Origin: Leucoraja ocellata | Taxonomy: Eukaryota | Assembly: GCA_036785375.1 (NCBI GenBank) | Contig: JAWMAR010000391.1 | Coordinates: forward strand, 1,178,001 to 1,242,000 | Length of the DNA stretch: 64,000 nt | Direction: 5' to 3' | In this document: one piece after another, positions 4,308 to 62,915 of the stretch | Numbering within the stretch: position 1 is the stretch's first letter | Layout of the letters: every line of letters starts with the position of its first letter | Program-made: the position numbers and the translations under genes | Notes under the pieces: model-generated | Told to the model about the DNA's origin: nothing | Seen by the model: only the letters and a program-made list of their open reading frames with translations | Databases searched by the model: none

Positions 4308-4626
4308 AGTTTAGTTTAGTTTAGCGATACAGCATGGAAATAGGTCCTTCGTCCCATTGAGTCCATGGCAACCCGTTCACACCAGTTCTATGTAATCCCA
4401 TTTTCGCATCCTCTCCTTACATGCTGGGGGCAATTTACACAGGCCGATTAACTAACAAACCCGCATATCTTTGTGATGTGGGAGGAAGCCAGAGCACCCA
4501 GAGGAAACTCACGTGGTCATAGAGAGAACGTGCAAACTCCACACAGACAGCACATGAGGTCAAAATCGAACCCGTATCTCTGGCGCTGTGAGGCAGCATC
4601 TCTACCAGACGTGCCACTGTGCTGCC
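4308..4626 (-). mobile_element. HE1/V-SINE-like SINE, near full length
   Basis: (AGTTT)n tail on the left, GAGAACGTGCAAACTCCACACAGACAGCAC core, tRNA-like head on the right. Confidence 0.85.
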
Positions 4627-7600
4627 ACTTGTAACTAATAAGTTTCATCGATAACAGTTTTGGGGTTTCTATATTTATATGAACATATAAATTATCTGAG
4701 TTCCTGTTAATTCCACAAAATAATGCTGGTAGTTTCTCTATTTTAAAGCCTCCAGTTCTGAGCCATTATCATTGTGTGTAATGTGTGTGAGAGTTAGTGG
4801 ATAGATGTGACAGATCATGGCACCATCTAGTGGACTCATCTGAGATGACTTTCAGTACCTGGTGCTGCCACTAAATTTGGTCCCCACATTACAAATCCGA
4901 TGAAAAAAGTAATTATTGGGAATTGGTTTTGCATTTCCACCAGTTTCCACCCTTACATGTTTCAAAAATGAAGGAACTTCTTTCTCCGAGAGACTGAACA
5001 AAGCAAATTTTTCATCTCATTTGTGTGAACAGCAAACATCACTGCGACATTATGTTGGAAAACCCGGCAATCGGTTTCTTGCTAGGAGATGGTAATTGAA
5101 GAAGGATGAGGTCCTTGTCACCCAGAGTACAGAGTACAGCTGTAAGTGCAGGAAAAATTATAACGGCAATTGCTGATACAGAGATTAAAAATATTGGAGG
5201 TGATTGGAAAATCTCTTTAACTGAGATACATGACTCTTCAATTCTGGAAATATTGAATGTCCCTTTAGTTACATTATCATGCAAATGTATATCTGAATGA
5301 ACCAACATTTTCTATTAAACTCATTGGGAATAAACAGCTTGATGATCCAATCCATGTTTCACCTTGGTAGATCTAATTGGGCAATGATGTCATACATAAA
5401 AAGGTTCACTTCTTGGGGGAAAGCTATGGGGAGGCCCCTGGGGTGTCGCACGCACACGCACACAACTTTTTTGCTTGTTTATTATATAATTTACAGAGCA
5501 CTATGTTTACATATTCTGTTGTGCTACTGCAAGTAAGAATTTCATTGTTCAATCTGGGATATATGACAATAAAACACTCTTAACTCTTGAGTTCGGCACT
5601 GCAAACTAGGGCAGTGAATAGCATTAAGATCTGGAACCTCAAGCTGATTTTTCCTTCCTTTATCTATCAGCAGTGAAGCTAATTCAGGGGACTTGTAATT
5701 GAGTTAGCAGACTCTCTGCAGAGCACCCCACTGTGGTATCGACATGGCCCTATAGCATCTCTCTGTTCATGCATCCTGAACAGTAATCCGATCATAATGC
5801 CGATCTTCATAACAAAAAGAGTAAACGCACAAAGGGGGACATAACCTTTACTGCTGCGTGCCTTCTCATCTTCTGACCTTCTTTAGACCAGTATTCCACT
5901 TTAACTACCTCAACGTCTGCACCTGTAGCTGCCAAGTATGAACACCAAATCAAAGCCATACAGATTGTTCCAGTAGCTGCTTCATTACTTTATTATAGTT
6001 TCAGATGAGGGTGATGGTTAGATACACATTCACTCACAAACATTTGAGTGAAATGTTAGAAGTGAGCCTGGTGTGATAATTTTTTTTTTACTGAGCCAGA
6101 GAATTGGTTTTGTCAATGCCAATACTGTTGGACTGGAAATGTAGATAATTTTCTTTCAAACTAAACTTTTTACCTGGTAATCAAGAGTCACCAAATGTAC
6201 AAAATATAAAACTTAAATTTAACAGACTTGGATTAAAGTACCAGCTTAGTTTAGCTTAGAGATACAGCATGGAAACAGACCCTTCGGCCCGCCAAGTCCA
6301 TGCCAACCATCGATCACCCACCCATCCTGTTCTACACACTCGGGACAATTTACAGAAGCCAATAAACCTACTAACCTTCACCTCTTTGGAATTCTTGGAA
6401 CCCGAAGGAATTTTCCTTTAAATTCTTAACACTTCTATTAATATAAAGGCCCGTGGTACCTTCTTAAATGCCTTTATTGTTATAGGTATAAAGTCACATT
6501 TACATAGGTAATAACAATACATTTTCTAGATACTTTTGATTCACTGTTTATGCTGAAAAGCATAATTCTGCATCTCCCATGCATAGTACCATTGAGGCAG
6601 ATTATTCCATTGTGTTAAATGGGTTGTGTTTTATACTGAGGATTTAATTCATTAAATTAAAATTAGCATTCAGTAATTATACTTACATTCATTGTTAAAT
6701 AGAAGGGAAATAACTATTCAAAAAATGCAGCATTGTCACAAAGACATAATTAAAGGGGAGAAGGGAATTCTGACCAGGAAAGAGGAGATTAACCCGACAT
6801 TCATGGTATTCTAAAAAAATAAAACACAATTCATGGAATGTTCCCCAGTGCCCATCGAGCAATGCATGCCTTAACACAATAAGCTTTCCCAATTAGAAAC
6901 AGAGCAGTAGAAACAGTAAGATAAGCCTCTCAACATGAGGGAGATTAAGAAAACTATGGCTAACTGAATGCACAGAACTCACCAGGAACCGAACTGCTGG
7001 ATGTACAATTATCTCAGCTATGCAAGAAAGTAATTGCTCTGAAAATACCTATTAAAAGATTAAAGGTTTGGGGCAGCAATTTCAGCACTGAGATGGAATG
7101 GGATATTTTGACAAGCTAGTTATGGATCTTCTGATGTCCCTATGACTCCTCCGTTCCCTTTCACCAGACGTTCACTGCTCTTCCAAATTTTCTGCACCCG
7201 ACATCCACAACCTCCATCCCCATCTCCAATCATGATTACCGGTGTCTCCATTTCTATGTCCCTGTTGCTCTCTAACTATATCTGGGCCTTAATTGCCTGA
7301 CAGAGAAGTCAGCCTGACTGACCGGAAATTGAGTCAAACAATGCTGTTCCTCCAGACTTCTCGTTACCTGAAGGAACATATTTGCCCATGTTTCCTTGCG
7401 CTCAAAGCTGTCTCCCGTCACCATAACCCATCTCTATCTTCAACTATTCCAGCTAATATGACAGATGAATGACAAAAGTTAGGGGGAAATTAACCTGTCA
7501 AGTAAACAAAATCACATTAGACAATGAAAAGAAATCATACATCAAACATTCTTTGGCTTTTGGCTGAAATGCGCCGATGGATTTTTCAAGTGAAATGCCG

Positions 7601-8235
7601 CAGTTGGTTTTGGCTAGAATGCTGTTTGCTATTGTGATTTCAATCAGATACATCAATCATATAAAATGTCCATGGAGTCACTGAGTCAACAGCAGGAAAC
7701 AGGCCATTTGCCCCACCAATTCCACACCAACCAATGGACACCCATGCAGATTAATCCCATTTTCTAACAATAATTCAAACAGAATAAAAGAACAAAGTGT
7801 CCTATGCCTAAGTGAATATCTAGGCCATTAAATGCTGTCAATGCCACAGCTTCCATCACTCACTGGGAGTTTGTTCCAGGTAATCACCACTCTCTGGATG
7901 AAGAATGTTCCCCCTCAGATCTCATCAAATTCTCTTACTCCTTACCCTTAATCTGTGTCCTTATTTGCCTGTAGCATTATTTGTCTTTGATAATGGGAGA
8001 AGTTTCCTGCAGTGTACCCTATCTATATCACTCATAACTTCCTGTACCTCAATCATATCTACTTTTAACCTCTACCACACCACTCTCTCTACTTGGCTCC
8101 CATTGCAGCCAGGGATATATCCCATCCGACCCTGGAGATTTATCCTCCACATAGCGCATTAGAAATTTGAGTAAATCATATTTATATATGGAGACGTGCT
8201 ACAATTTAACATACCCTTTCACTGAATTCTACAGC

Positions 8236-8357
8236 AAAGAACTGCAAATGCTGGTTTAAATCAAAGGTAGGCACAAAATGCTGAAGTAACTCAACGGGAC
8301 AGGCAGCATTTCTGGAGAGAAGCAATGGGTGACGTTTCGGGTCGACCCTTCTTTAGA
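8236..8357 (-). mobile_element. Penelope-like terminal repeat copy with mutated hammerhead core
   Basis: Minus strand reads TCTAAAGAAGGGTCGACCCGAAACGTCACCC...AAATGCTGCCTGTCCCG. Confidence 0.65.
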
Positions 8358-8434
8358 TATAACATTGATGTTCGTGGAACCTTGTTATCTGTAAATTTAG
8401 CTGTTATCTGATTTATAATACTTCTCCGTTGATT

Positions 8435-8800: not shown

Positions 8801-11329
8801 GTCAGCCATGATCGAGAGGGGCCTAAGATGGATTTATAATGCACCAATGAGAGGAGTGATGGTCCAAAATGATAATCCATTTTCTCTCTCCATGGACTGG
8901 CAGATCTATTGTTTCCTGCATTTTTTTTCTGGTTTGTTTACAAAGCACTTGTTTGGCGCTAAAGTGCTTTGGAAAGTCCTGAGATCTGCAAGTTACTTCT
9001 TTCTCAGATCATGGAGAGAGCAGAGGGCTAAATATCAGCAGTTTAGATTATTAATTAGATTTTGATGAAGGATTTTTGATCTGAAAAGTGAACTCTTGTA
9101 TTTCTTCTGATAGATGTGGCTGAACCTGCTGGGTATATCCAGCATTTTGTATTTTTATTATGAATTAGGTGCTTTGCTGAAAATGCTACATTAAAAAAAA
9201 GCTCAATGTTATTTTGTTGAAAATGAAGAATGCAGAAATATGACTAAGTATGGGAGGCAACAGCAACCCACTGACTGTAAGTACCAGTCTTCCATTCTCT
9301 TTGTCTCTACTATAATTTGTATTCAAAACACTAACTAAGAACTTCCATCTGAATTATGTACGTTACATTGTAATAAACTGAAAGTAATCTAATAATGAAG
9401 CATGACAGAATACTTGACCAGTGTAAGGCATTCAACAGTCCAATCTGAATCAGAAGGGTCAGCAGTTCAGTCCTAACATGATTCTCTGTGTCCGTCAACA
9501 TAAAAACATTAATTGTATTTGAACTTTTGTGGTCCAAGACCACAGATAAGGGTGAAAGAAATAGATGGATTAGCTGTGCATAATATGTGCAGTGGCTATG
9601 ATGCATAGTCACAATACACATGGAGTGAGGGAACATGGTACATTGAGTCATTACGATAAAGTGGTTTGGCTTCTGTTTCAGATGAACGTAATGAAGAATG
9701 TGGTGGCCCAAATAGTCATCTGCCCACGGGTAAAAACTGTGAATGGTCATGCATGTTTCTCCTGATTAACAAAGAGGTTCGGTTCTTTTAAAAAAAACCT
9801 TGGTTTGCAAAAAAATGGCATCAACAGAAGATATTGCAAACATGTCATTTACATGGATGATACCAGTTACCATAACAAGTTACCATGTAAAGAAAATGTC
9901 AGAATATCATCATTCTCTTGCCAATAAGGAAAGGTAAATCTGATGCTGGATTTAACAAGCTGAAAATACAATCCGTAATGTACAAGTCATTCAACCGGGG
10001 GCTATTTTTGGCAGATGGAGGAGCATGTATGCTCCAGACAATTTCCATTCCATTTTAAATGGCTTGTTTATTTCATTGATTATTTCCCATTTACCTAACC
10101 AAGGAGATGTTAAGACAACATTTTTCACTGTATTTTGGTGCATGTGAGAATAATAAACCAATACCATGTTATATTTCACTGGTTTCATGGGCCTGTATTT
10201 GAAAAATTAGTCTCCAACTGAACAAAACAAAAACTCTGATCAGTGATTAATTATACAAAGCCTGGTATTTTAGTGACGATTTGTTCAGTTAATCTGTTCA
10301 TTAATTGGGAGAGACCTTTCATTTATTAGTTCTAACTGTATGTAACTCAATGTGTTCAAACCCACAGTGTGCTCCTTGTTAGACTCTTGATCATCAGGAG
10401 CACATATAATAGTGAGGGAGAATAGATGGGCAGTGCTTAATAGGCGGAAAGCTTGTGAATCTCAGTTGCAATTTGTGTGTGAAGCTGGTGACTTTGGGGC
10501 ATTAAGATTTCGCGAGAAGAGCATTACATCAACATCTCTGGACCATCAATGGTATTGAATCCACAATAATACTCGGTAGTTATATTAATGTGCATGCTTA
10601 TCACACGAAAATAACATACTTGAACATTCTACTCTGTATGCTTACTAAAATGTAAACAATTAGAAACACATCTTGGCCCAAAATAAATTACAGTCACAGA
10701 GTCATACAGATACACAGTACAGAACTGTGCCCTTTGACACATCACTTACATCACAGTCATTCCTTCTTCTATCTTTGTTTAAATCAGGACATTTTGCTGG
10801 TGTAATTTATGTCTCGGAACTTGAAGCTCTCGAACATTTCCATTTCAGCGCCATTGATGCAGACGAGGGTGAGTACTCCACTCGGCTTCCAATATTAATG
10901 GCTAGTTCCTTCATTTTGCTGACATTAAGGAAGAGGTTGTTGTCTTAATACCATGTTACTAAGCTCTCTTTCTCCTCTCTGTATTCCTTCTCTTCATTGT
11001 TCGAGACTGGCCCACTGCACTGTCTATATCTATTGTTTCTCTTTCCCCTGACTAGTCAGAAGAAGTGTCTCGACCAGAAACGCCACGTAATCCTTCTCTC
11101 CAGAGATGTTGCCTGTAACAACGTAAGTTACTCCAGCATTTTGTGTCTATCTTTGGTTTAAACCAGCATCTGCAGTTCCTTCCTACCCACTGCACTGGTG
11201 TCATCTGAAAACGTAAATGGAATTAGAGCAGAATTCCGTCACAGGAAATCAAATTTATTCAGTCTCTCCTCGTAACTGAAACATTCCATCAGAGACAACA
11301 CTTTTTGTGATTCTCCTCTGCATGCGTTT

Positions 11330-12090: not shown

Positions 12091-12286
12091 GGTGAGTTCA
12101 AGTTGTACCATAAATATACTTGTTCTTATACTCTTCACGGCAGACCATGAGGCTAATATTCTGCATGCCTTAAAATAAACAAAATGCTGGAGTAACTCAA
12201 TGGGTTAGGCACAATCTCAGGAGAACATGGATAGGTGATGTTTTGGGTAGGGACCCTTCCTTGCATTTTCCTTCCATTTTGTATCT

Positions 12287-12912
12287 TTAGTTCAGTTTAG
12301 TTCAGAGATACAGCATGGAACCAAGTCTTTCAGCCCACACTGACCATCCATCACCCGTTTTACACTAGTTTTATGATATCTCATTCGCTACAAACTAGGG
12401 GCAATTTACAGAGGAAAATTAACTTGCATACCTGCACGACTTTGGGATATGGGAGAAAACTGGAGCACCCGGAGGAAATTCACGTGGTCACTGGAAGAAT
12501 GTTCCCGATGTTGGGGGAGTCCAGAACCAGGGGCCACAGTTTAAGAATAAGGGGTAAGCCATTTAGAACGGAGACGAGGAAACACTTTTTCTCACAGAGA
12601 GTTGTGAGTCTGTGGAATTCTCTGCCTCAGAGGGCGGTGGAGGCAGGTTCTCTGGATGCTTTCAGGAGAGAGCTAGATAGGGCTCTTAGAGATAGCGGAG
12701 TGAGGGGCTATGGGGAGAAGGCAGAAACGGGGTACTGATTGGGGATGATCAGCCATGATCACATTGAATGGCGGTGCTGGCTCGAAGAGCCAAATGGCCT
12801 ACTCCTGCACCTATTGTCTATAATGTGCAAACTCCACACAGACAGCATCCAAGATCAGGATCTAACCTGGGTCTCTGGGACTGTGGTGCAACAGCTCTAC
12901 CTGCTGTTCCAC
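12287..12912 (-). mobile_element. HE1-like SINE split by a young CR1 3' end (+, about 12497-12821)
   Basis: The SINE halves flank GESRTRGHSLRIRG...FFSQRVV.LWNSLPQ CR1 sequence ending CTATTGTCTAT. Confidence 0.85.
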
Positions 12913-14093
12913 TTTAAAGTCTTTCTTTGGCATAATCAACATCTGTAGTTCCTACTTATTACATTTTGTATGCCTTCACTACCTTCCCTACCTGCCTCAA
13001 TGTCCCTCTGTTCTTCATTACCCCCCACAACTACTATTTATTTTGTATGTCCTACCCTAATAGTCCTGTTAAAGTGCGCAACCTCACACTTATCAGGATT
13101 GATTTTCATCTGCCCTGCCCAATTTATCTACTGATCAATATCATTTTAAAGACTGAGCTTATGCTCCCTGGATCAAAACTTTGCTTGATAATAGGAAGGA
13201 AAGGGTGATGGTGCAGGGTTGCTTTTGTGATCGGAAGCATGTACCAAGTGAATTGATGCTGGAGCTGTTAATATTTGTTAAGACATTCATAATTTAGATA
13301 TGAATGTCAGAGGAATTATTTGCAAGTTTGCAGATGACACATAAATTAGTAGTGATTTTGATTGTGTGAAGGATAGTCTTAAGATGCAGAATGCTAGTAT
13401 AATGCTCAGTTGGTAAGATGATCAGAGCAATAGCAGATGGAATTTAGTTTGTGAACGTGCCTTGGATCCCATGGGCTCTAACCTTTTGGACCAGTGTTTC
13501 ATCTGAGACCCTGTGAAAGGCCTTTGTGAGATCTATGTGCACATCATCAATTGTGCTGCCCTCATCAATACATTCTGCTACCTTTACAAAACACTCAATG
13601 AAATTGGTCAGACAGGGTCCCCCTCCCCCATAATCACAACCATCATCAGATAGATTTACATTGAATGAAGCTACAGGTGTGTAAAACAGTGATGTTTTTG
13701 TTTGACAGGAGGAGACCAACTACAGACGTCTTGCCAAGTAACTAACAAACAAAATATGTTGGATACTATGATTTATGTATGGATAATATTTGCTGCTAGA
13801 AATAAGAAAATACAAACTGTACTGTATTACACTATCACGTTAATGAGGACAGACTGTGGGCAGATTAGCACCAGGCAAGCACATTGCACAAAAAGAACTC
13901 TGCAAGGCTTAATTACTGTTTGTGTGTCAGTTAGTTTTGCATGTTAGTTAGTTTAATTTTAAACTTGATTTAATATGGACAAAATCTCGGGCTTTGTGTT
14001 GATGCCTGCCTGCCTGTGATAGATTAGTAAAATACTATGAATGAGAAAAATGTAGATTACAGGTAATGAGAAATGCTGACATTTAATCAAGCT

Positions 14094-14188
14094 GTCTCAA
14101 GGAGGGTCTCGACCCGAAACGTCACCTATTCCTTCGCTCCATAGATGCTGCCTCACCCGCTGAGTTTCTCCAGCATTTTTTATCTACC
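14094..14188 (+). mobile_element. 95-nt Penelope-like mini-element with TSD
   Basis: Direct repeat TTTAATCAAGCTGT at 14082-14095 and 14189-14202. Begins GTCTCAAGGAGGGTCTCGACCCGAAACGTC and ends TCTACC. Confidence 0.8.
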
Positions 14189-15468
14189 TTTAATCAAGCT
14201 GTTGTTAGTATATTGTGATTATCTGTAAAACAACCAGATAATTAATTTTGAGATGAGTAAAATAAGTTATTTTTCACCACTTATTTCTGAAGATATGTTA
14301 AATTTTATTTTTTTTAAATTTTATATTACAGATTTATATGTTGCAGATGGTAATTATCTTTACAATTCAATCACCACAATGTAATCATTCTGTAAATTTC
14401 CTTACTGAAGAGCTTGAACCTTACTGCATCCTGTTTGCACTGTGATAAGCATACAATAGATGCGACCAAGTGGATAACTCTGCCGGTCATCAGTTCTAGC
14501 TAGGAAACAATGCTCGTGCTGCATTTGTATGTTACAGACCTTGATATTGAGTGCAAATACTGTATTGACACTATGAACAGAGAAAGGGTACAGCAGTAGG
14601 GCTTGAGCATTTTGTTTTTACTATAATGTGGACCAAAAGGGTTTTAGAATAAATTTTACCAATGCAATGTCCCCGCAGTGGAATTCGAACCGTAACTTTT
14701 TACTGAGGCAAGCGTGCTACTAACAACTTTAACTCCTTGTCTTTGAGATTAATCTGTGAAAGATATTCTAATTGTGTTTTGCATCAACGTGTTGTTGTTT
14801 TGCAGTTTTTTTCCTTTTTACTCTCTTGTCGAATGTTTTGTGTACTTTGTGTATAATTAATGTTTCTGTGTGTTTAATTTGAGTCTATACTTGTGATTTC
14901 ACTACAAGCATGATTTTCAGTGTACCTGTACCTCACCGTGCTGTACATTTGACAATAAACTCAACATGACTTGAACACTAATTCAAAGCCATGATTTGCT
15001 TTGTCTGCAGTCCACCCTATCTATATCACTCATAACTTCATACAACTCACTGATTTCCCATTTTAACTACTACTGCCCCTAAACCGCACCGCTCTCTTTA
15101 CCTGGCTCCCATTGCAGCCAGGGATATATCCCATCTAGCCGTGGAGATTTATCCACCATATAACGCATTAAAGCATTGAGTAAATCATTTTTATTTGTGG
15201 AGACTTGTGCCACAATTTAACCTACCCTTTCACTGAATTCTACAGCTACAAAGTTATTTTCTTTTGTGAACATTATTCATTTCAGATCTTGCCTACACCT
15301 TCTGGTTTCACACACAGATTACCCCTGTTGTCCCTAATGCTCCTACTTTTACCCTGGCTACCTGATCTACCCTACTCCTGTATAACATTGCTGTTTCTAG
15401 AGTCATTGTTACCTGTAAATTTAGCTGCCTGCTGAATACAGAGGTGGAGTCAACAACTTTGTTGAGTG

Positions 15469-15563
15469 GGTACACAAAAAAGCTGGAGAAACTCAGCGGG
15501 TGCAGCAGCATCTATGGAGCGAAGGAAATAGGCAACGTTTCGGGCCAAAACCCTTCTTCAGAC
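15469..15563 (-). mobile_element. 95-nt Penelope-like mini-element with TSD and intact hammerhead core
   Basis: Direct repeat ACTTTGTTGAGTG at 15456-15468 and 15562-15574. Minus strand reads GTCTGAAGAAGGGTTTTGGCCCGAAACGTT...GTGTACC. Confidence 0.8.
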
Positions 15564-15587
15564 TTTGTTGAGTGATGTGGGCTGAAT

Positions 15588-16338
15588 CACCTGCAGCTCA
15601 ACACCGACAAGAATAAGGAATTAGTGGTGGACTTTAGGAGGAGAGGAACACCCCTGTCCCCTGCCTCCATCAATGGTGTGGATGTGAATTTTACCAAGGA
15701 GTACGAATACCTTGGAGTGTACCTGGACATTAAACTGGACTGGTCCAGGAACCCTGAGGCCTGTACAAGAATGGACAGAGCCGGTTGTACTTTTTGAGAA
15801 GGCTCCGCTCCTTCAAAGTCTGCAGCAAGATGCTGTAGATGTTCTACAAATCGGTGGTAGCCATCTTCTTCGCTGTTGTGTGCTGGGGTAGCAGAAGCGA
15901 AAGCCGCGGACACCAACAGGATTAACAAACTCATCAGGAAGGCTGGCTTCGTCCAGGGGGTGGAGTTGGATTCATGGGAGGTGCTCTTGGAGGGGAGGAT
16001 GCTCCTCAAACTGCGGAGCATCTTGTACAATACAGCTCACCCCCTCCATGATACACTAGTCACAATCTGAGGAGTACCTTGAGCAACAGACTGATTCCAC
16101 CAAGATGCAGTACGGAACGCCACTGGAGATCCTTCTTCACAGTGGCTATCAAATTCCTCCCTCTTCTGTCCTGGGGTAGACTGACTCCCCTCTTTCTCCT
16201 CCCAAAATATTTGTACATCCCCAATCCTTTCCATTTGTCACTTTAATTTTATGTGATGTATCTTCTTGTATTTTCATGACTGTTGGCAGATTAATTTCCA
16301 TCCTGGGATAAACAAAGTTCTATAGTATCGTATCGTAC
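15588..16338 (+). mobile_element. Rex1/Babar-like LINE 3' fragment
   Basis: HLQLNTDKNKELVVDFRR...YEYLGVYLD...RLYFLRRLRSF; frameshifted; ends in an (ATCGT)n tail. Confidence 0.8.
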
Positions 16339-16399
16339 ATTTAAAAACATGTAATTAATTGTCTCTCTCTTCAATAACGTGCTATAATACACCCCCTTG

Positions 16400-16561
16400 C
16401 CTTGTCTGAGTCAGTGATGAGGGTCCACAGTAAACTCTCTCCATCACTCCAGCAACAGCAAACTTGTCCCGGAAGTACAATTCAAGCAACAACCGGATGT
16501 GCTGGTCCCTAGCAACCGAAGCCGCATCCTAGCAACGGGCGGGCGGGCGGCCACGGGTAAA
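16400..16561 (+). promoter_or_regulatory. DNAAF4 proximal promoter with RFX X-box-like, ETS and GC-box motifs
   Basis: Two CCTAGCAAC X-box-like sites (16503-16516, 16524-16536), ETS cores CCGGAAGT (16469-16476) and CCGGATGT (16493-16500), tandem GGGCGG from 16537, and TGAGTCA (16407-16413). Local CpG enrichment. Confidence 0.65.
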
Positions 16562-16684
16562 ATGCCGGTGCTGGTCAAGGATTACACCTGGGAGCAGGCG
16601 GAGTCCCAGGTCTTTATCACCGTGCCGCTGAAGGGCGTCGTTGCCGGGAAAGCGGACATCTTCTGTGCGGAAGATTATTTAAAG
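16562..16684 (+). CDS. DNAAF4: DNAAF4/DYX1C1 coding exon 1 (start of CS/p23 domain)
   Basis: ATG at 16562 gives MPVLVKDYTWEQAESQVFITVPLKGVVAGKADIFCAEDYLK, similar to the human DYX1C1 N-terminus (MPLQVSDYSWQQT...TENYLK). Donor AAG|GTGAGG; 123 nt. Confidence 0.95.
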
Positions 16685-18703
16685 GTGAGGGGAGGCACAC
16701 TGAAGGAAACTGCCGGCGGCAGATAGGGTGGGGGGAGGGGGAGGGGGTTGGAGAGGCGTCTTGAGGAGGAGGGGCAGAGGAAGGAAGGAGACAATGATTT
16801 GGAGAGAGGGAGGCGAAGGGAACAAGGGGGACAGATCAACGAAGAGGAGGGGGAGGGAGCTGAACGAGAGGCAGAGTTTGGACATTCAGTATACTCAAAG
16901 GCTGATCTTTTACCTCTTTTACCATAAATATATATTTATATTTATATATTCAGTCTTGCACTATATATCCCCACATACCACTGACATATATTAAATCATG
17001 CCAATTCCATTAATATCCGTCTTGAATATTCTCAATGATTTAGATTAGTTTGTTAGAGGATATGGGCCATACATGGGCAAACGAGACTAGCTTAGATGAG
17101 GTATTTTCATGAGCATGCATGAGTTAGGCTGAAGGGCCTATTTTTGTGGTGTATGACTATCAGCAGCAGTAGCCTGGAATGGTCTTGAGGTTAATGTGAG
17201 ATTCACTCATCCTCACAGGCAAAGAGGTTGGGCAACACAATGGCAGTTAAGTGGGCTGATGCCTCACAGCAGCAGCATTCTTTGTGCAATTCTAACCCCA
17301 GTGCTGTCTGTATAGAGTTTTCGTATTCATCCTGTGACCACGTGGGTTGCCTCCAGGTGCTCCAGTTTCCTCAAAAGATGTTTGGTAGATTAATTGGTCA
17401 CTGTAGATTGCTCCTAATGTGTAAGTGAGTGGTAGAATATGGGGAGAGTTGATCAGAATATATGGAGGAAAATGTCAAGGAAAAGTAACAGTACAATGTG
17501 ATTGGTCTGTGAGCCTGTGTAGACTCGATTAGCCAAATTACCTCTTTCATAAAGAAATGTCGAGTGTCAAGGTATGCACATGAGATAATGGTGGAGGATT
17601 GCAGGAAGTTATAGATTTCCCATGTCTGGATACCACACGTATCATGTGATCCTTACAAACTTCTACGGATGCACCATAAACGGCTCTGCCCAAGACCATC
17701 AGAAATTGTAGAGAGTTGAAGATGTAGCCCATTCCATCACACTGACAAAAATGCCTCTTTCCCCCCCCCCCCCCTCCCCCCCTCCCCCCCTCCCCAATCT
17801 TGAAAGTGGGAACTACCAGACTCGCGAGTAGTTTCTTCCACTCTTTTATCAGGCTTCTAAATGGCCCCCACCAGCTAGGCTATTGTCCAATTCACCTCCA
17901 ACCCATTGCAGACATTGTCTATGGTACTGGTTTGCTACGTTCTGAGAACTACATTCTGCACTGTGTATCTTCCCCTTTATTCCACCTATTATACTTGAGT
18001 TTGACTCGATTGTATTTATGTATTTATTTATCTGATTTGATTAGATAGCTTGTAAAATAAAGCTTTTTACTGTACCTCGGTTTACATGACAATAAACCAA
18101 AACCTAAAATCTCAAGTGATGTGAAAGAGTGCAGTTTTGGGTTTTGACCTCTAGATGGCACATTCTCAGGGAATGAGGTTTTAAAACCATGTTCTGTGAG
18201 TAAATAAGAACCAGTGAGTTTGAACATTTCACAGGCGATAGAGACATTTTTCATACTGCTCTATTGTTGATGCCATCTATGGTGAAAAACGTGCTAGGAT
18301 AAACGGAAATCTCGTGAAAAAAAATCAGATGTCAATTTTTCTTTTAGTGGGTACTAAAATACCCTGGCATGTTTATAAAACTGCTCAGTTCTGGATTAAG
18401 GTAACTTTTCAATCACACGGCACTACTTTGTGGAGTTGTACAAAGAACTTTCTCAGCCCATGTCCTTGCACTGTGGTTATATAAATCATTTGAATGTTCA
18501 GGCCAGATATTTGAGTCATTTATGTAATAGAATGAACATGGTAATATTATACACCTGCAAATCGTTTCAGAAAATTGTTGGTATGATCTTGTGATTTTTT
18601 TAGATTTTGACAAAAATTTGAGATTTGATTTACAATGTTCATTTGTTCATTGGACATCTGTATGTGCCTGCAGGTAGTGATTTTTTTTAAATTATTTCAA
18701 AAG

Positions 18704-18851
18704 GTGAACTTCCCTCCATTTCTCTTTGAAGTGCTGTTATTTGCTTCTATTGATGAATCAAAAAGCTCAGCTAAAGTTGGCAATGGTGTTGTCATTTTCA
18801 CATTGTACAAAAAAGAATCTACAATGTGGGAACAACTTACAACAGTTGAAG
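18704..18851 (+). CDS. DNAAF4: DNAAF4 coding exon 2
   Basis: [52 protein letters not shown] acceptor, G|GTGAGG donor; 148 nt, phase 0 to 1. Confidence 0.95.
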
Positions 18852-19471
18852 GTGAGGGGAGTATTAACTATTTTTCTTCGTACATAGAAAATAAAACAGT
18901 ACAACATGGAAGGCCTTTGCCTCACAATGACCGTGTCCAAAATGATGCCAGTTTAAATTAACCTCCTCTGCCTGTACATGATCCATATCCCTCCATTCCC
19001 TGCTTAGCCATGTGCCTATCTAAAAGTCTCTTAAACACCACTATCATATCTGCCTCCACCACCGCGCCTGGCAGCACATTACAGATGACCACCTCTCCCT
19101 ATCTGTGTAAAACAAAACTTGCCCCACATATCTTTAAACTTTCCCCCTTTCACCTATGCCCTCTAGTCTTTGAAACAAGATTTTGACTGTGTAATCTATC
19201 TATACCTCTCATGATTTTATATACTTCTATCTGGCCTCCTCAGCCCCCAATGCTCCAAGTTTGTCCAACCTCTCTTTGTACCTCATAGCCAAGAGTCAAG
19301 AGTGTTTTATTGTCATATGCCGATAATAAATATTACTTGCTGCAGCCTCTAATACCCTCTAATCCAAGTAGCATGTAGACTTCGGATGAAAATAAATTTG
19401 TGTGAAACACAAAAGCTGTGTTGATTATTAAACCCTGGTAACTGTGAATCATTTTGACTTTGCTTTGATAG

Positions 19472-19605
19472 TTGATAAGGAAAAGTTGCGAGAAAAGCGG
19501 GAGCGAGCCATTCTTTCTGCTCAAGAGAAGGCACAAGACGCTGTAAAAGAAAAAGCAGTTAAAAAGCGAGAAAATGAGAAGTACTCATTGGAAAAGATGA
19601 TGAAG
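19472..19605 (+). CDS. DNAAF4: DNAAF4 coding exon 3
   Basis: (V)DKEKLREKRERAILSAQEKAQDAVKEKAVKKRENEKYSLEKMMK. TAG acceptor, AAG|GTGAT donor; 134 nt. Confidence 0.93.
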
Positions 19606-20662
19606 GTGATATTGTTGAACAAGTCAAATATTTCTTTTTTCCCATTATCGACAGGTACATTGATGCACAAGAGGTCAGTCAAGAAATTTGTACGAACTAC
19701 TCGTTTCATTAAAATTCAAATAAAACATGCAATTTAGCAAACACAAATAGTAACGCTTTAAGTGTACTACTCAAGATGGTTGGCCACAAAGTAGATCTGT
19801 AATATAGAAAGCTGAGAAAAACAAATCCATTCTGCCACCTAAAAATTTCACACATTTTCTGTTCTAGTTATACCTTGTCATACCTTGTCATATAACAGCA
19901 GGTTAAGAAAATATAAAATTAAAAAAATTGTAGTGTAAAGTGGTACCAATGCTACTAACCTGGTTCAGCTGTGGAAGATGCCAGTTCAAACAGCACAATA
20001 AGATGACTTAAAAGAAGGTAAATGAAACTATGATGCAATTGTGACAACGACACTTTTTGTCCAGTTTTGTTGATGGTATTGTTAAAAAATGACCACCTAA
20101 TCAAAACGTAACTGGAAGCAAAGGACAGGCAGCTGGATTTCCAGATTCTGTCAAAACTTTGCTCACAGTTGTCTGATTGTTTCCAGCATTTTCTGATTTT
20201 ATTGCACTTACTGTTTTAGTTGCTGCATTTCCCTGTGTTTAAATTGATCAAAACTGAAAACTCTGATCACTTTATAAAGGGGAAAAATGCAGCTATTTAT
20301 TGTTCCCAGTCCAGCCAGTCTTTCTACCATGTCTCCAAACAATTGATCTGCATCCACAAAAGTCAGCAATAATATATTGTGGCTGTGGGCTTCTTGTGGT
20401 GCATGCAGATGAAAAAGGCTCTTGTTCGAATTTCACTGTACCTTAATTGGTGTCTGTGACAATAAACTGATCTAGATGCTAGATGCATCTAAACCTTATT
20501 TCAAAATTAAAGAATGATGTTATTTGTTGTCAGATGAAACTCAATTTTAACTTTGAATGTGCATTTTAAGTCCATGGGATGGTTGCAAAATATAGAAAAT
20601 TGGGATTGGATGCCTACATTAAATTGTGTTAAGAATTATGCATTTGTGCTAAAACGTTACAG

Positions 20663-20915
20663 ATAGAGGACAAGAATAGAGAACAGATTGAAGAATTGAA
20701 AAGACAAGAGCAAAGAAAAGCCACTGAAGAATTAGAAAAGTGGAAACTTCAGAAGTGTGAAGAAGAGGAACTAAAGAGAAAAGTGGAACTAAAGAGAAAG
20801 GAGGAAATAAAGATTGCAAGGCAAATAGCTGAGGCAGAACAAAAGAAGAAGAAAAGCGAAAATAAAGTACAAAATTCTGCCTCTCAAGCACCACACAAGC
20901 ACTCTCTCAAAGGAG
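20663..20915 (+). CDS. DNAAF4: DNAAF4 coding exon 4 (charged coiled-coil)
   Basis: IEDKNREQIEELKRQEQRKATEELEKWK...HSLKG. CAG acceptor, G|GTAAG donor; 253 nt, phase 0 to 1. Confidence 0.92.
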
Positions 20916-21839
20916 GTAAGCCTATTTCATATCAATGATAAATACAGAGGCAATCTAAGTTCTTAACCAGATTGCTGGCTGTTGAGTTTGCCTCACCCAC
21001 AGAGAATCAATAAAAATAATTAAACATTTTTTTCTCAAAACCACTAATAAAAGATGGTCCTATGAGCAGTAAAGTGATCTAATCCACATTTAGTTTCCCC
21101 AGTGTTAGGAAGTCTACATCACGAGGAGATTTACAAGTAAAAGGTTTACATCATTGTGAGGTTTACAAGTAAAAAGTTCCTTCAAGTGAAAATAATTTCA
21201 GGCCCCTGGATGTTGTAAATAGAGAATGTAAACGGATAGATGTTGCATTACACAAGAAAGTGCCTTGTGTAGGACAATGGTTATTAGATGAGAAGAAATA
21301 GGAGTAAAGGAGTAAAAGGGGGTAACAATCTGAACATCCGAAGCAGGGGCTCTCCCCACCCCCTCCTCCTCCCACACCTCCTGCTGCCCCAACTCCCCTC
21401 TTCCCCCTCTCCCCCCCCCCCATCTACATCCACAGACTCTAAGCACAAATTCCTTATTTTATACTTGAGCATTCCTACCTTCCTCCGATTACCCTCTTGT
21501 GCCTGAAATAGATCCAAAGAGCTTTGTGATTTTCTTTAATCAGACTTGCCAAAGCTAATTCATGGCCCCTTTTGGCCCTTCAAATCAGCCGCTTAAGTTA
21601 TTTCCTCCTTTCTTTACATTCCTCAAAGGTCCTCTCTGATTCCATCCTCTTCCTTTCAAGTGCTTCCTTTTTCTTTGGTTATCCAAGGTTTCCTTACTTT
21701 GCCATCCTTTTCCCTCCTCCTTACTGAAACATGTTTGTTCTGAATGTCAATGAACTGGCCTTTAAATGACTTCCACGTGCCAAATGTGGACTTGCCCAAT
21801 AATAACTGCGCCCAGTGTATGCTCCCTAACTCCTGCATA

Positions 21840-21934
21840 GTCTGAAGAAGGGTCACGACCTGAAACGTCACCCATTCCTTCTCTCCTGAGATGCTGCCCG
21901 ACCAGCTGAGTTACTCCAGCATTTTGTGTCTACC
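21840..21934 (+). mobile_element. 95-nt Penelope-like mini-element with TSD and intact hammerhead core, nested in an antisense CR1-like fragment
   Basis: Direct repeat CCTGCATA at 21832-21839 and 21933-21940. Begins GTCTGAAGAAGGGTCACGACCTGAAACGTCAC. Confidence 0.8.
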
Positions 21935-23209
21935 TGCATAACAATGTTGTAGTTTGCCTTGTTCCAATTTATTTCTTCCTGCAAGACCAACCCCCCCCCC
22001 CCCCATCCCATCCCTCCAGTTCCATCTTCCCATTATCCCCTGCTCACTTGCTCCATCTATCACCTCTCACTTTGTACCAACAATTTTTCCTGTTCCCTCT
22101 TAGTTCCGATACAGGGACTTAACCCAAAATGACGACATATACCTTTGTCTTTCATAGATGCTGCTGGACCTGCTAAGTTGTCCTAGCATGCTGTTTTAGT
22201 TCTGCCTTATCTAACCTTGGTTAAATAAGGTAGCTGATAATAGTTTCTTGGTACAATTATGTTGAAACCACTGAAAACCAAAGTAACACCTAAATCTTTA
22301 AAATTCTTGTACAGGTTTTGAAATGTTTCCGAGGTTTCACTTATTTTTACTCCTGATCTCTAGTCCTAAAACTCTCTGAGATCTCTGCAGTCTTACATAT
22401 CTGGTCTCTTGAATTATCCCATCCCTGGCAGTTTGCCAGCTTCTAAACTCTGGAGTTCCCCCCCTGCCACAAACCTTTCTGCCTTCCTTTCCTTCTTTAT
22501 GACACACCTTTAACGCTACCTTTTTGACTGAGCTTCTTGTGTTTAGTGCCCTTGGGACATGTAATGGCATTGAATTTGTCACCACTTTATAAATGGTGGT
22601 GCTATTGGAGTTTTGCATGCTTATTCTGATCATTGTTGTCTCCTGCTCAAGTGCTATCCTGGTCACTGCCACCCATTGTTGCTCTGGTTGATTCCTTTCA
22701 AGTTGTCCAATATTCATGGCATGTCGGATAAAGCTGCTTGCTAAATGAGCAGAATAAATATTTGTGTTGTCAGCGAATGTTTCATTAAGAGTTCTGGTGC
22801 CAGAAGTCCTATATTTGTCAATTTTTCAGGCAATCCAGTAGGCAGAGAGTGCTGCCTAGATCTAACAATTTGGCTCTCTTCCAATTTGGCTCTCTTCGTC
22901 TAATTAGGATTTATCAGCTTCTTGGATGTGGTCAATGTTTAACTGAGTTTGAATGTCAAGAACACATTATCAACAAAGATTAAATAGGGCTGTAAAAGTA
23001 GCTCTAGTTTTATACATAGTATAAGCAGATCCTATTGCTTGATATTTAAATCTTAAGCAGATGAAAGAGATTATTTCTTGAAATATCTATACCAAATGGA
23101 AATATGTTGCCCTTTGTTTATTTTATAGATCGCATGATTTTTTTTTTAAAAAGGTCAAATTTGCAGGATGGTATTCGATGATAAACTTCTAATCAGGATT
23201 TCATTGCAG

Positions 23210-23879: not shown

Positions 23880-24820
23880 TTAGTGTTCTGATTATTAAAT
23901 TTGCAGATTATATGAAAATTGGCAGTGTCGTTGACAATGAGGCAAATAGTCATAGGCTACAGGATGTAATTGATCAGTTGGTAGAATGGGCAGTGCAATG
24001 GAAGATTAAATGAGAGGTGACTGCAGCTTGCAAGGACTAATAAGGTGCCTCCTCAAAGCATAGGAGGCGCTTGTGGTGGAATAATGAACGGGGAGTCTTT
24101 CTAGGCAAGTTCAAGGATCTCTGAAGGCAGCAGCACAAGTAGATAAAGTGGTGAAGAAGTTGCTTGGAATATTTGCTTTCAATGGCTGTAGCATATAATT
24201 TAAGGGCAGGTAGGTTATGGTATAACTTTTGAAAACAATAGTTAGGCTACAGCTCGAGCACTAAGTGCAGTTTTTGTTGTCACACTATAGGAAGGACTTG
24301 ACATCAATGGAGTAAGTGCAGAGGAGATTCACAAGAATGTTAGTCACAAAATGCTGTAGTTACTCCAGCATTTGTGTCTATATTCGGTATAAACCAGCAT
24401 GTGGAGTTCCTTACTTTACAAGAATGTTGCCTGGGGTGAAGCATTTTAGGTATGAGCCAAGACTGTATGGGCTGGTTTTATTTTGCTGGAGCAGAGCGTG
24501 ATGGGAAACCATGTAAATGTATACAAAGTTATGGAAGTATAGGTAGGATAGGTACGAGGAAACCTTTCCCCATTACGGTGATTTGAGGAGATTGGAGAAG
24601 GAACTTCTTTCACCCAGTGGGTGATAATAATCTAGAGTGCACTGCCAGTGGGGACAGTGGAGACAGATACTCTCAGAACATTTAAGATATATTTGAATGA
24701 ACAGTTTAATTGCCAGAGCATGAAAGGCGACAGACCAAATGGTGATACATGGGACTAGTATAGATGAGAACTTGATGGACAACATGGACATGGCGTGCTG
24801 AAGGGCCTGATTGTGCGCTG
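23880..24820 (+). mobile_element. Decayed CR1 LINE 3' region
   Basis: IIKFADYMKIGSVVD...LQDVIDQLVEWA, VQRRFTRM, and a 3' tail resembling GCTGAAGGGCCTG. Confidence 0.75.
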
Positions 24821-28212: not shown

Positions 28213-28868
28213 AGGCAATATGAAAAATGCCTCGGATTAATAGATAGTTAACTATCATATTTCTATCTTTTTCATTTTTGTTAAGACTTACAAAGATTTG
28301 TAATTCATGACAGCATCAAAACCAGGCATCTTTTGACTTTCTCAGACAATAATGTTTAAATAAGATGGTCAGCATTCAATATTGGTGCTATTCTACTTGC
28401 ATGAAGTAAAGTTGAATGCTATTTTGGATTCAGGAACATTCATTTGCGAGCTGAGCATTGACTAGGTAGAGTGAAGGAGATGTATTTCTATTCCTTTATC
28501 TAAGTAAGATTGCCGGTTACCATGTTGCCACCAAAAAACAAGTTTTTTAAGAATAATCACACATTTTGTTACACTTTCCAGATCTCAGATTTTCATGCAC
28601 CGGGGACCTTATTTTTCACTCTTCCAATGCACAGAGGAGGAATTATTTGTTTTCTCGGTCAATATGTTGCACAAGAAACTTACTACAGAAACTAGTTCAG
28701 CACTTTTTGGGACCAAATAAGACCTGGGTTCAATCATGACCTGTCTGTGAGGAGGTTGCACGTTCCCCCTTTGACTTCCTGGTTTCTCCCGGTGTTCCAT
28801 TTTCCTTCCATCACTCAAAAACGTACAAGTTGGTTGGTTAGTTGGTTGCTGTAAATTATCAATATTGT

Positions 28869-29088
28869 GTAGACAAAAAATGCAGGAGTAACTCAGCAGG
28901 TCAGGCAGCATCTCTGGAGAAAAGGAATAGCTGGTGTTTTGGGTCAAGATCCTTCTTCAGATCCTGATGAAGAGTCTTGACCCAAAACGTCACCTATTCC
29001 TTTTCTTCCGAGATGCAGTCCGACCTGCGGAGTTACTCCAGCATTTTGTGTCCGTCTGCAGTGTAAACCAGCATCTGCAGTTCCTTCT
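28869..29088. mobile_element. Inverted pair of Penelope-like repeats joined at their hammerhead-like ends, downstream of the DNAAF4 stop
   Basis: A minus copy ending CCTTCTTCAG abuts a plus copy CTGATGAAGAGTCTTGACCCAAAACGTC at 28964. Confidence 0.7.
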
Positions 29089-31524
29089 TGCGCCTATTGT
29101 GCAGTATAGGTGTAATAAGTAGAATTCTATTGAGTAGAATCCGAGGGTAGAGAGGGCTGATTGGATTTTGTAGAGAATTAAATACACTAGGATTAGTAGA
29201 ATTGGGTGCTTGGTGGTTGGCACAGACTCAATGGGCCAAAGGGTCTGTTTCTGTGCTGTGGCTATTTTACCCTAAGAGTCAAATCGTTAATGTTTCCTGT
29301 TCATTTTTGGCATTTTTGTGAGCAGTCTAAGATGCTTCTGATATTTGCCAAACAACAATAAATGTTCATAAAGTTTTGGAATACCCTATAATTTGATATT
29401 TTACCACCCGAGAAATTGAAATAGATGAATAATGCAACAATGGCGCATTTAGTAAATTTGAATAATTCAACTAAATGCAAACTATATTTAAGTCGTATAT
29501 TATATTTTAAAATAAATAAATGTTATAAAGTCTTGAAAGATGTTGCAAAGTCTTTCTGAAAATACCCACTCAGTATACTTTGGAATGGGTAAATGGAGAA
29601 AGATACTGTCTATAATATATTGTCATGTTCTTTTAGGAGTCTTTTTAAACACAAAATGTTAAATCAATTAAATATTTATTTTGTTTGAAAGGAGAATCCT
29701 GTAATATATGAATGAATATAAATAGTAAAACAGTGTTAAAAGACAAGGATAGAAGACTGAAATTAACTCAACTGTCAGCTATGTTTTCGACACGATAGAA
29801 GTATTCGATAAGCAATAAAAGCATTGCGGACAAATAGTTGAAGACGTAAATTAAAGGTTAGACCAACACCAATGCAGACAATATAACTCTTGGTGGATTT
29901 AAGGTGTTCAGGCTTTATTTTAAAATAATCTATTAATAGTCAAAATGCCATAATGGCCCTGCATTTTTCAAAAGTATATCCAAGATATAACCTGAAGTAT
30001 TTTATTGATAAATATAATTTTATATTGAACTGAACCAAAAAAAAAATCATGATTTGGTAATATTACAATAAACTATTATGTAAGAATTGCACTTTCAGTA
30101 CCTCCTGTCAGACAATGTTAATGGAAGCCAACCTTTCCTTTGCAGCCATTTTTGAATATATTGTTTTAGTTAATCTCCTTTTAAACTGAGAAATATAAGG
30201 CAACAAAAAATACATTGCTCCAAAAAAATTATTGGAGCCCTTACAATAACATCAAAGAGTTGGTTCTTAAACCATAAAATGCTGTAAACACTTGGCAGCT
30301 TAGATTGCATCAGTGGGAAAAGAAACAAGAGCTAGGTTTCATGTCAGAGACACTTCATCAGAACTGGTAAGGAGACAAAAGAAGTTTGTTAAGTTGGGGG
30401 GGGGGGGGGGGGGCAGGGAGACATATCTGATAGCATAAAACTAGAGTGACCATGGGGATAAACTGTAAACACGGTTATCTGGCCAATGAGTCAACGAGAA
30501 TAATTAGAGAATTACCGCATAGACAAAAGAATACAAGAGTTATAAAGAGTTAGTGCTTGGACTCGGTGATGAAGCTCCTTTTGTTGGGAAGGCAAAGTTC
30601 TTTATTTCTCGGTAGGTTGAGTTGCATTGCACTCATGCGATTGGCACTAATCTGAAGCCAGAGGCTGCCATGTTCCTTAATCCAAACTGGACATTTTCAC
30701 TTGTTTTTACCTCAGAAAAGGTTCAGCATACAACTGCAGAGGCACTTCTTCAGGATTAAAAGTTTCAAATCTTTGGAGAATGCCTGGCCAAAATATGCAG
30801 CTGTCTAAATCAAATTGACATAGTGATTCACTCAAAATCACTATGGCAATTTATGTCTAACTTTGAAATCACTGGAATCCACGCCAAGAGAATTGGGAAC
30901 TGCTATAAAGCTATACCGTTTGTTTTGTTGCAATTTTGCAGTGTGAATGATAGATGGAATTAGAAATCAAACACTAAACAAATGGCTGGAAAAGGCAGAA
31001 GAGCAATAAATGACAGTCAGCACACTTGGCTCTGCTCCTCTTGTCAGGTGTAAGAGACCAGATTTGTAGCCATGTCCCCCTGACGACTGTTTGCAAGAAA
31101 GATGTCCAACTGTAAGCCCCTCTCAGAACACGTGGAAGAGCAAAAAAAAAAAAACGCCCAGGAAGTATTGGAAGTACTAGGACAAGAGGAGAGTGATAAA
31201 TATTTTACCATTAAAGTTTGATCATGATCTGGAACTCACTACCGGGAAGGATAGCAACTTTTATCGTATTTAAATGTCCTTGGACATGTGCCAGGAGAAC
31301 CTGATCTCAAGGCAAGAGACTAAAGGATGTACTGAAGGATTCGACTGATGAAAAAGACGCGCTGAATAGCCTAGGGTTTTAAATTTTCCATGATTCGATT
31401 CGTTTATCTGCAAATGTAAAATGCTAAATGCATGCAAATGGAAAAAAAAGTCACAGTAAAGGTCTGAAATAAAAACTATATTATAGACGGGCATATTACC
31501 ACAGAAAATTATTTTTAAATAAGC

Positions 31525-31899: not shown

Positions 31900-32868
31900 T
31901 CAAAGCGCGAGTAAATCGTGAATTCTCTTCTTATCCGACGTAGTGTTCAGGGAGCCGTTACGATACATCCCACCGGCTTGGAGCGCCTGCGAGAACGACT
32001 GCGACAGCGGTTTGTAGACAGAGGGTGCAATGTCACAAGTCGGCTCATTGGATCCATAATCGGCAGAGGTTGTTCTGAACAGCGGATTCTGGGGTTTCAC
32101 GAATGGAGCCGGGGATTGTGGCGACGTTGGGATCTTTTCCATGCAGGAAAAGACAGGGTTTCCAGGGTTCGCACAGGGAATCCACAGCTTATTTTTATCC
32201 TTTGTCGTTGGAGGGCGGACGGGAATAGGATCGTCGCATCTCGTTTCCTTTTTATCCTCAACATGTGGAGCATAGGATTGCGTGAGATCACCACTTGCGT
32301 CTTTGCAATCAAGGCCTGGTTTTACGTCGTGACATATGGAATCCAATGGAACTATTAAAGAAGTGGAAGGGTTGAAATCATCACGCAACGTATCTCCCAA
32401 AGGCTCCCCTGGAGTGAAACAGTAGTTGTCACAGATGGAGTCCTTAATGCAACCAACAGCTGGAGCGATAGGTGTGCTGAAGTCGTCGCAGACTGAGGTT
32501 CTAAATCCATCCATTCCAGTGTTTGGCGCACAGGGATCATCATACGCGGAGTAATCGAACTCCGCCTTTGGAGCAACGGGTCGATTGTTCGCTTCGCACT
32601 CTTCAGATTCATTATTTGGGATGGGTAGCGGGTTTTGACCATCACAAGTCACAGCATCAGAATCGGGCTTTGAAGCGATGAACTGGTTGAGACAGTCGAA
32701 CTCGCTGTCCTGAAGCAGGGCCGTACGAGTCGGAGATGAATTGAGATCCTTCGGCGGCTCATTAGATTCCGGCTTTGGAACAAAGGGCTGCTTGAAGTTG
32801 AAGTCGTCACATTCTGGTTCTTTGAACTGGACCCTTCGAGCAGGCGATGGGACGTGACAGTCAGCCAT
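31900..32868 (-). CDS. PIERCE2: PIERCE2/C15orf65-family protein (piercer of microtubule wall), single coding exon, 322 aa with long N-terminal extension
   Basis: First ATG at 32868 sits in a strong Kozak context (ACCATGG). The C-terminal ~92 aa (PCANPGNPVFSCM...KPQNPLFRTTSADYG...YKPLSQSFS...GMYRNGSLNT) match recalled C15orf65 motifs. It lies tail-to-tail with DNAAF4 and head-to-head with CCPG1, as in human. Confidence 0.88.
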   Translation of the reverse strand: MADCHVPSPARRVQFKEPECDDFNFKQPFVPKPESNEPPKDLNSSPTRTALLQDSEFDCLNQFIASKPDSDAVTCDGQNPLPIPNNESEECEANNRPVAPKAEFDYSAYDDPCAPNTGMDGFRTSVCDDFSTPIAPAVGCIKDSICDNYCFTPGEPLGDTLRDDFNPSTSLIVPLDSICHDVKPGLDCKDASGDLTQSYAPHVEDKKETRCDDPIPVRPPTTKDKNKLWIPCANPGNPVFSCMEKIPTSPQSPAPFVKPQNPLFRTTSADYGSNEPTCDIAPSVYKPLSQSFSQALQAGGMYRNGSLNTTSDKKRIHDLLAL

Positions 32869-62868: not shown

Positions 62869-62915
62869 GTAGGTCATTAAATCATTGTTTCACGGACACA
62901 AGGCCTACCTTGTGT

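Follow-up and report, generated by a model that had tools for sequence, protein, structure and literature searches.

What sets the ends of a short mobile sequence that opens with a ribozyme motif? The question is raised by a window of 64,000 nucleotides (nt) of DNA from Leucoraja ocellata (contig JAWMAR010000391.1, positions 1,178,001 to 1,242,000). In this window an earlier note had described three insertions of a 95-nt unit beginning with a minimal hammerhead motif, and had proposed a non-autonomous retroelement, resembling a short interspersed nuclear element (SINE) and mobilised by Penelope machinery. Re-reading of the window confirmed the three insertions, their equal length and common ends, and a separate direct repeat at each (14, 13 and 8 bp; Table 1). 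These repeats overlap the unit by 2 nt, on its 5' side in two copies and on its 3' side in the copy at 21840. At about 20,000 random positions of the window, taken with the same geometry as a control for the three 95-nt copies, repeats of at least 14, 13 and 8 bp occurred at rates of 0.015%, 0.02% and 0.28%, respectively. A pattern search also found the ribozyme core intact in two copies and mutated in the copy at 14094, as previously noted. Pairwise identity among the three is 81-87%. One of them, copy 15563, splits an old reverse-transcriptase frame of a long interspersed nuclear element (LINE), and three codons of that frame are repeated across it, so that this copy is a clean insertion. 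Below, four copies are named by a single coordinate (Table 1), position 1 is the first base of the 95-nt unit, base 95 is its end, and base 131 is the end of a 3' tail.

The 95-nt copies belong to a larger family. A profile of the three gave 28 matches in the window at E<=1, 23 of them at E<=0.0011, and many of these were longer, shorter or inverted. After exclusion of the two weakest (62179 and 47823), we counted 26 arms at 22 loci, which with hand-set bounds amount to about 3.1 kb, or about 5% of the window. A 36-nt 3' tail past base 95 is common to eight arms and partly present in one more. Six arms continue upstream into pyrimidine-rich DNA (pyrimidine fraction 0.70-0.87; background probability of at least 0.73, 0.044), in five cases with CAG or TAG directly before the core. 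At four loci two arms stand head to head, and in all four pairs a single arm has the tail. Within the window, no head-to-tail arrays of the unit were found. Clear duplications of 8-15 bp were present at 7 of the 22 loci, around inserts of five different lengths. The 95-mer accounts for three of these seven well-bounded events; the others are two insertions, of 319 nt (15 bp) and 163 nt (12 bp), and two inverted pairs, one of 147 nt with 15 bp and one of 76 nt with 11 bp; the duplications of these four came from wider search zones. Among the 19 zones searched, eight held no duplication of at least 7 bp and seven more held doubtful ones of 7-8 bp.

This anatomy resembles the one seen in Penelope-like elements (PLEs). 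Endonuclease-positive (EN+) PLEs have head-to-head inverted arms, one-sided tails of 30-40 bp, duplications of 8-10 bp and microhomology joints (PMC3846280; PMC8557442). Membership of the PLE class is likely and rests on four structural hallmarks; the optional 36-nt tail, the head-to-head arms with a one-sided tail and the variable 8-15 bp duplications are present. It is quite probable that the unit is a recurrent product of a PLE. Our fuller reading, which we hold probable with slightly less assurance, is that the 95-nt unit is the commonest short insertion of an abundant repeat, likely a PLE terminal repeat (pLTR), and is likely produced recurrently by the enzyme of the element instead of deriving from a separate SINE master. 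The insertion anatomy points to the proposed mobilisation by Penelope machinery, but does not support a stand-alone SINE-like unit.

The start of the arms is non-random. Twelve of the 26 begin at positions -1 to 6, over the first bases of the hammerhead motif, eight inside the unit and six upstream. When the eight best-resolved edge arms were set against the eight inside arms, clustering relative to uniform ends between -1 and 70 had a probability of about 0.001 after correction for the choice of window, and the result was the same when pairs were counted once. Within the window, the shared 5' end is therefore more than chance, in agreement with the earlier note. An A occupies position 0 in five of the seven well-resolved solo arms. 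By contrast with this edge, the predicted cleavage site (position 31) is the start of none of the 26 arms; on this ground we reject ribozyme cleavage as the process setting the ends. The absence of such starts also agrees with the in vitro finding that the template is predominantly uncleaved RNA (PMC11167929). No description of the family or of a fixed 5' end was found in the literature searched, repeat databases being outside that search. The sharply fixed start point is the one odd feature of the family.

The short form does not descend from a single short ancestor on the tree of the 15 arms that cover most of the unit (96 columns; mostly unresolved, with bootstrap values that had not settled). 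In none of 200 bootstrap trees did a branch set the three discrete copies apart from all others. The 319-nt copy 37398 is the partner of copy 15563, at 96% identity and with support of 100/98. The discrete copies require three label changes on the tree, at least two of which are forced by its starred branches. Small as the sample is, it shows that the short form arose in more than one subfamily.

How could one enzyme repeatedly give the same short product? For the 3' side, published work provides an explanation. In the element of the anole, reverse transcription starts at two internal sites and the tail is the stretch between them; targets are AT-rich, hammerhead cleavage is not needed for insertion, and cleavage needed protein (PMC11167929). 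By analogy with the anole and fly elements, a GIY-YIG endonuclease would nick AT-rich DNA, reverse transcription would start inside the RNA at base 95 or base 131, and the RNA would be copied uncleaved, with the hammerhead carried along and not setting the ends. We infer ourselves that the cDNA would then run off where the RNA begins, at the A immediately preceding the unit in an initiator-like pyrimidine-A-G-T context, and that it would be joined to the target via 1-3 nt of microhomology. On an ordinary transcript, priming at the first site would yield a solo copy of 95 or 131 nt; if the downstream repeat were primed at that same site, the copies would be longer and randomly truncated. The motif would decay after insertion. 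Run-off at the RNA start, considered within all readings, is a tentative explanation that falls a little short of an even chance.

The ends were also assayed beyond the window. Positions 37200-37660, with 37397-37443 omitted as repeat, were compared at 88% likeness with the contigs of four sequencing runs (X1, X3, X6 and X10, with four organism labels, out of 24 runs). Matching contigs numbered 60,095, 57,694, 48,856 and 38,351 per run. Among the loose ends listed, the best supported was the tail end, 37268, in all four runs (420, 481, 422 and 470 contigs, with unrelated A-rich flanks); near base 95, only 37301 was listed, in one run (X10, 86 contigs). Of the end statistics that the earlier note proposed as a check, the start is non-random within the window, but the strongest end listed in the four runs is that of the tail and not base 95. 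Summed depth, which is not a copy number, was 15-28 million in the core and 9-14 million in the tail, about 1-2 million in the upstream tract, and 20-90 in the flanks. The upstream pyrimidine tract is part of the repeat and is much less represented at 88% likeness. In the same four runs, opposite-strand joints linked 37268 to 37303-37304 with no letters between (11, 24, 9 and 16 contigs); such tail-to-tail fusions of the two priming sites suggest that its own end serves the element as a target or as a priming point. Contig collections gave no match for a pattern of the 3' part (viral, metagenome and prokaryote collections) or for the hammerhead pattern (metagenome and viral collections).

Several observations weigh against a recurrent PLE product with a fixed start. 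Base 95 (37304) is not among the loose ends listed, and the 95-nt 3' mode therefore rests mainly on the window. Age could have erased a recognisable upstream tract in four of the twelve edge arms, which show 63-75% identity, and the bases at the unit start fit a splice acceptor as well as they fit the RNA start that we infer. Nor could a reverse-transcriptase/GIY-YIG frame be tied to the repeat: no PLE domain was found by Pfam in the 17 long stop-free open reading frames (ORFs) of the window. The only open frame in the unit begins at about base 53. Two translations of this 26-codon frame yielded 55 candidates among longer proteins, none at E<=0.01, and no match among 1.84 billion representative proteins; a 26-residue query being weak, these blanks are not evidence of absence. 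In the 319-nt copy, 37521-37550 (minus strand) could be the last nine codons and stop of a reading frame. These nine codons, upstream of the unit, loosely resemble the ends of Neptune endonucleases in alignment rows, and are too short to test.

The ribozyme motif itself is well preserved in a few arms. The pattern CUGANGA-N13-GAAACGUH has three matches in the window and none in 100 shuffles. Two lie in the 95-nt copies (Table 1) and the third, at 63811-63838 (plus strand), is an intact core absent from the earlier note, so that 3 of the 26 arms have an intact core. The boxes CUGANGA, GAAA and UH are present in order, together with a palindromic helix III and a helix II of 4 bp (83% paired across 13 arms). 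The assignment to minimal type I hammerheads of the Penelope type is thus supported, as had been claimed, and self-cleavage is predicted; cleavage of minimal hammerheads as dimers is summarised in a review (PMC6765202). In Drosophila virilis, the Penelope hammerhead has a 2-bp helix I and a palindromic 2-nt insert, and an intron ends at helix I (PMC4209133). This variant answers both caveats raised earlier, namely the short stem I and a boundary lying upstream of the cleavage site.

A search of the window against Rfam gave 14 matches at E<=1, none falling on the hammerhead family and none to a hammerhead model. The covariation score was not above that of shuffles (275/500) and helix changes were one-sided only; the copies are decaying and represent few subfamilies. 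In predicted folds, stem II bases pair with downstream bases, the probability of the stem II pairs being about 0 in three of four sequences. Folds predicted for two copies did not form the hammerhead dimer, and monomer folds were no more stable than shuffles (z -1.6 to +0.1). In the consensus fold, columns 51-58 of the alignment pair with columns 81-88 as a 3' stem that lacks real covariation. Modelled folding favours an alternative hairpin that would hide helix II. Within unit plus tail (37268-37398), an 8-nt word of the unit recurs in the tail, which gives one strand near unit base 50-58 two alternative partners, one just before base 95 and one in the tail. These two alternative stems of unit and tail may set the two priming sites.

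Another way to obtain the same 5' end from the same PLE origin would be a block at the 3' splice site of an intron. Reverse transcriptase on unspliced RNA would stall at the pyrimidine tract and its bound splicing factors, leaving (A)G and the exon. The upstream DNA of the extended arms, pyrimidine-rich in six out of six and ending with CAG or TAG before the core in five, speaks for such a block. So does D. virilis Penelope, whose hammerhead likewise has a helix I of 2 bp and a palindromic insert of 2 nt, and whose intron stops at the 5' end of that helix I (PMC4209133); from the transcription start to this intron the distance is 46 nt (PMC2377424). In copy 37398, a GT donor-like hexamer (37520-37525) overlaps the presumed stop and would give an intron of 128 nt. 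However, discrete copies retain the G or AG that splicing would remove, and a protein block would not obviously yield such sharp ends. No shared first exon was seen upstream of the solo arms, which counts against this explanation and led us to reject a spliced template with such an exon. Altogether, we regard a splice-site block as rather unlikely. In the same copy, an acceptor-like CAG lies at 37398-37400, 128 nt from the donor-like hexamer, and GC-box-like runs are found just upstream of the unit.

Could the 95-mer instead be autonomous in its transcription? One or a few self-contained 95-nt masters might be transcribed and then rely on PLE proteins for their copying in trans, in the way that SINEs depend on LINEs. 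Three clean insertions of equal length with duplications are what such masters would produce; the terminal repeats of PLEs are enough for mobilisation in trans (PMC3846280), butterflies are mentioned as having short non-autonomous Penelope elements (PMC6685494), and a mixed tree would likewise be expected of several masters belonging to different subfamilies. Yet the discrete copies are not one lineage, one of them being nearly identical to a long copy, and solo copies with the same start also occur with a tail (8358 and 57118). The same sequence moreover makes up the duplication-bounded insertions of 76, 147, 163 and 319 nt, which does not agree with the stand-alone SINE-like unit first proposed. 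Polymerase III A-box and B-box patterns had no match on either strand of four copies; no tRNA part or Rfam match was detected, and head-to-tail arrays are missing. Masters of this kind are distinctly unlikely. An RNA cut out by dimeric hammerhead cleavage, perhaps circularised and then reverse-transcribed as in retrozymes, is highly improbable: three arms do have an intact core with palindromic helix III, the fragment at 63809 does stop at the predicted cleavage site, and the non-LTR (LTR, long terminal repeat) retrozymes of animals are PLE-derived (bioRxiv 10.64898/2026.07.22.740005), but cleavage would put ends at 30/31, where none of the 26 arms starts, the stem II pairs have a probability of about 0 in three of four folded sequences, two-copy folds lack the hammerhead dimer, covariation is not above shuffles, and the window has no tandem copies, on which ground we reject a tandem retrozyme.

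The element class as such is already published, including Penelope-repeat hammerheads, solo copies, tails and inverted pairs. Metazoan PLE hammerheads occur mostly one by one at scattered sites, and these single motifs are attributed to truncated PLEs (Cervera and de la Pena 2014, PMC4209133). The present motif is like metazoan pLTR hammerheads, especially that of D. virilis, in its core boxes, the extra base before helix II and the G-C first pair of helix II, as well as in the palindromic helix III with a 2-nt insert and the 2-bp helix I; unlike the latter, which has a helix II of 6 bp with a bulge, it has one of 4 bp (PMC4209133). The main-text parts of that paper name no cartilaginous fish and give no fixed-length solo unit such as the one found here. 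A close parallel to the two 3' ends is the green anole's Poseidon element PAc (Frangieh et al. 2024, PMC11167929), in which a hammerhead is followed within about 100 nt by two ends bounding an optional tail; AT-rich targets and an uncleaved RNA template are common to PAc and to the mechanism proposed here. The PAc ORF, however, starts inside stem II, where the present unit has no such start codon, and the PAc main text reports no fixed 5' end.

Inverted repeats, a tail of 30-40 bp on one arm, duplications, solo pLTRs and microhomology joints are likewise shared with Penelope of Adineta vaga and EN+ PLEs, in which the pLTR and tail contain the first ORF codons (PMC3846280; PMC8557442). The A. 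vaga element is of low copy number, whereas the present family occupies about 5% of the window, mostly as copies of 30-320 nt without an ORF. Animal non-LTR retrozymes (PMC7229834; bioRxiv 10.64898/2026.07.22.740005) and schistosome elements (PMC6765202) are similar in being short, non-coding, equipped with a type I hammerhead and PLE-related or retroposed, and the PLE-derived retrozymes include a chondrichthyan (bioRxiv 10.64898/2026.07.22.740005). Retrozymes nevertheless form head-to-tail tandems of 150-450 bp units (PMC7229834), an arrangement not seen in the window, and the schistosome hammerhead SINE-like elements have their own promoter before the ribozyme (PMC6765202), of which none was found here.

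Table 1. Copies and fragments of the hammerhead family in the window (position 1 is the first letter of the window; names used in the text are given in brackets).
Feature	Positions	Strand	Duplication or remark
95-nt solo copy, no tail, core mutated	14094-14188	+	14 bp, 14082-14095 / 14189-14202
95-nt solo copy, no tail, core intact at 15534-15561 (15563)	15469-15563	-	13 bp, 15456-15468 / 15562-15574; within old LINE reverse-transcriptase remnant
95-nt solo copy, no tail, core intact at 21842-21869	21840-21934	+	8 bp, 21832-21839 / 21933-21940
319-nt insertion (37398)	37268-37586	-	15 bp, 37253-37267 / 37587-37601
Parts of 319-nt insertion: A-rich filler	37551-37586	-
Parts of 319-nt insertion: pyrimidine tract ending CAG	37398-37520	-
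Parts of 319-nt insertion: 95-nt unit	37304-37398	-
Parts of 319-nt insertion: tail	37268-37303	-
163-nt insertion: 32 nt of pyrimidine tract, unit, tail	11023-11185	+	12 bp, 11011-11022 / 11186-11197
Head-to-head pair (147 nt), both arms without hammerhead, tail on left arm only	3099-3245	.	15 bp, 3084-3098 / 3246-3260
Very short head-to-head pair (76 nt), tail on right arm only	24342-24417	.	11 bp, 24331-24341 / 24418-24428; weak profile matches, E 0.068 and 0.21
Head-to-head pair, both arms from unit position 1-3, tail on right arm only	28868-29094	.	possible weak 7 bp
Head-to-head pair, arms from unit position 11-12, tail on right arm only	3875-4058	.	possible weak 8 bp
Solo copy from unit position 1-2, with tail (8358)	8230-8358	-	none found
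Solo copy from unit position 0-1, with tail (57118)	57118-57245	+	none found
Intact hammerhead only; similarity stops within 2 nt of predicted cleavage site	63809-63840	+	none found
Old solo copy from unit position 0-1, about 70% identity	51695-51790	+
Old solo copy from near unit position 1-6	12172-12266	-
Old copy, upstream pyrimidine tract ending TAG	21975-22200 (approximate)	+
Old copy, long upstream pyrimidine tract	34783-35100 (approximate)	-
Old copy, upstream pyrimidine tract ending CAG	30267-30400 (approximate)	-
Hammerhead 5' part, long upstream pyrimidine tract ending TAG	2581-2860 (approximate)	-	weak match, E 0.24
Old copy from unit position 10, partial tail	1038-1135	+
Very old copy, sister subfamily	9060-9157	+
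Very old partial copy	44659-44730	+
26-nt 3' fragment, unit positions 68-93	56662-56687	-

Some of these copies display further features. The fragment at 63809-63840 could be an inserted 5' cleavage product or the result of a later deletion. At the 5' joint of the 319-nt insertion (37549-37586), the first 10 nt of the A-rich filler repeat the bases with which the element itself begins, as template slippage would leave them. The tail of copy 8358 enters one of two direct 130-nt copies of another repeat, 84% identical to each other (8069-8198 and 15078-15207).

As animal DNA, the window contains introns and old retroelements; it is presumably the DNAAF4-PIERCE2-CCPG1 region, and its repeat content suggests a cartilaginous fish. 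Pfam gave a weak match to a CS domain at 16421 (below the cut-off, E 0.0017) and a LINE-type reverse-transcriptase fragment at 38051. In a GC-rich island at 32-34 kb, the last 70 residues of a 369-codon ORF (31903-33009, minus strand), much longer than the domain, match PIERCE1/2. A second abundant family of short repeats, presumably of the shark/ray SINE type, was seen at 4308-4618, 6243-6392, 12289-12913, 39472-39717, 51506-51632 and 58607-58866; one of its copies, at 12266-12289, stands back to back with a hammerhead-family arm. Finally, a near-perfect 100-nt inverted repeat (62914-63019), with below-threshold scores against several microRNA models, is likely a small DNA-transposon remnant or a fold-back insertion.

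For the question of how PLE insertions acquire their 5' ends, this family is a very large natural sample in which both 3' priming sites and a sharp 5' end are countable. A 5' mode that held throughout the genome would pin down either the RNA start or a splice-site block, and would show that the ribozyme does not define the ends of the mobile unit. A bolder possibility, which we consider unlikely, takes the 95/131-nt piece for the smallest self-sufficient mobile unit that a vertebrate Penelope has, with an RNA running from the first base of the hammerhead to the internal priming sites. Equally doubtful is its component that run-off ("strong-stop-like") cDNA was inserted hundreds of thousands of times and could seed further rounds in trans. 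If true, the minimal unit would account for the vast excess of solo hammerheads over whole elements in the genomes of animals, and the RNA start of the element and its minimal cis signal would be marked directly in the DNA.

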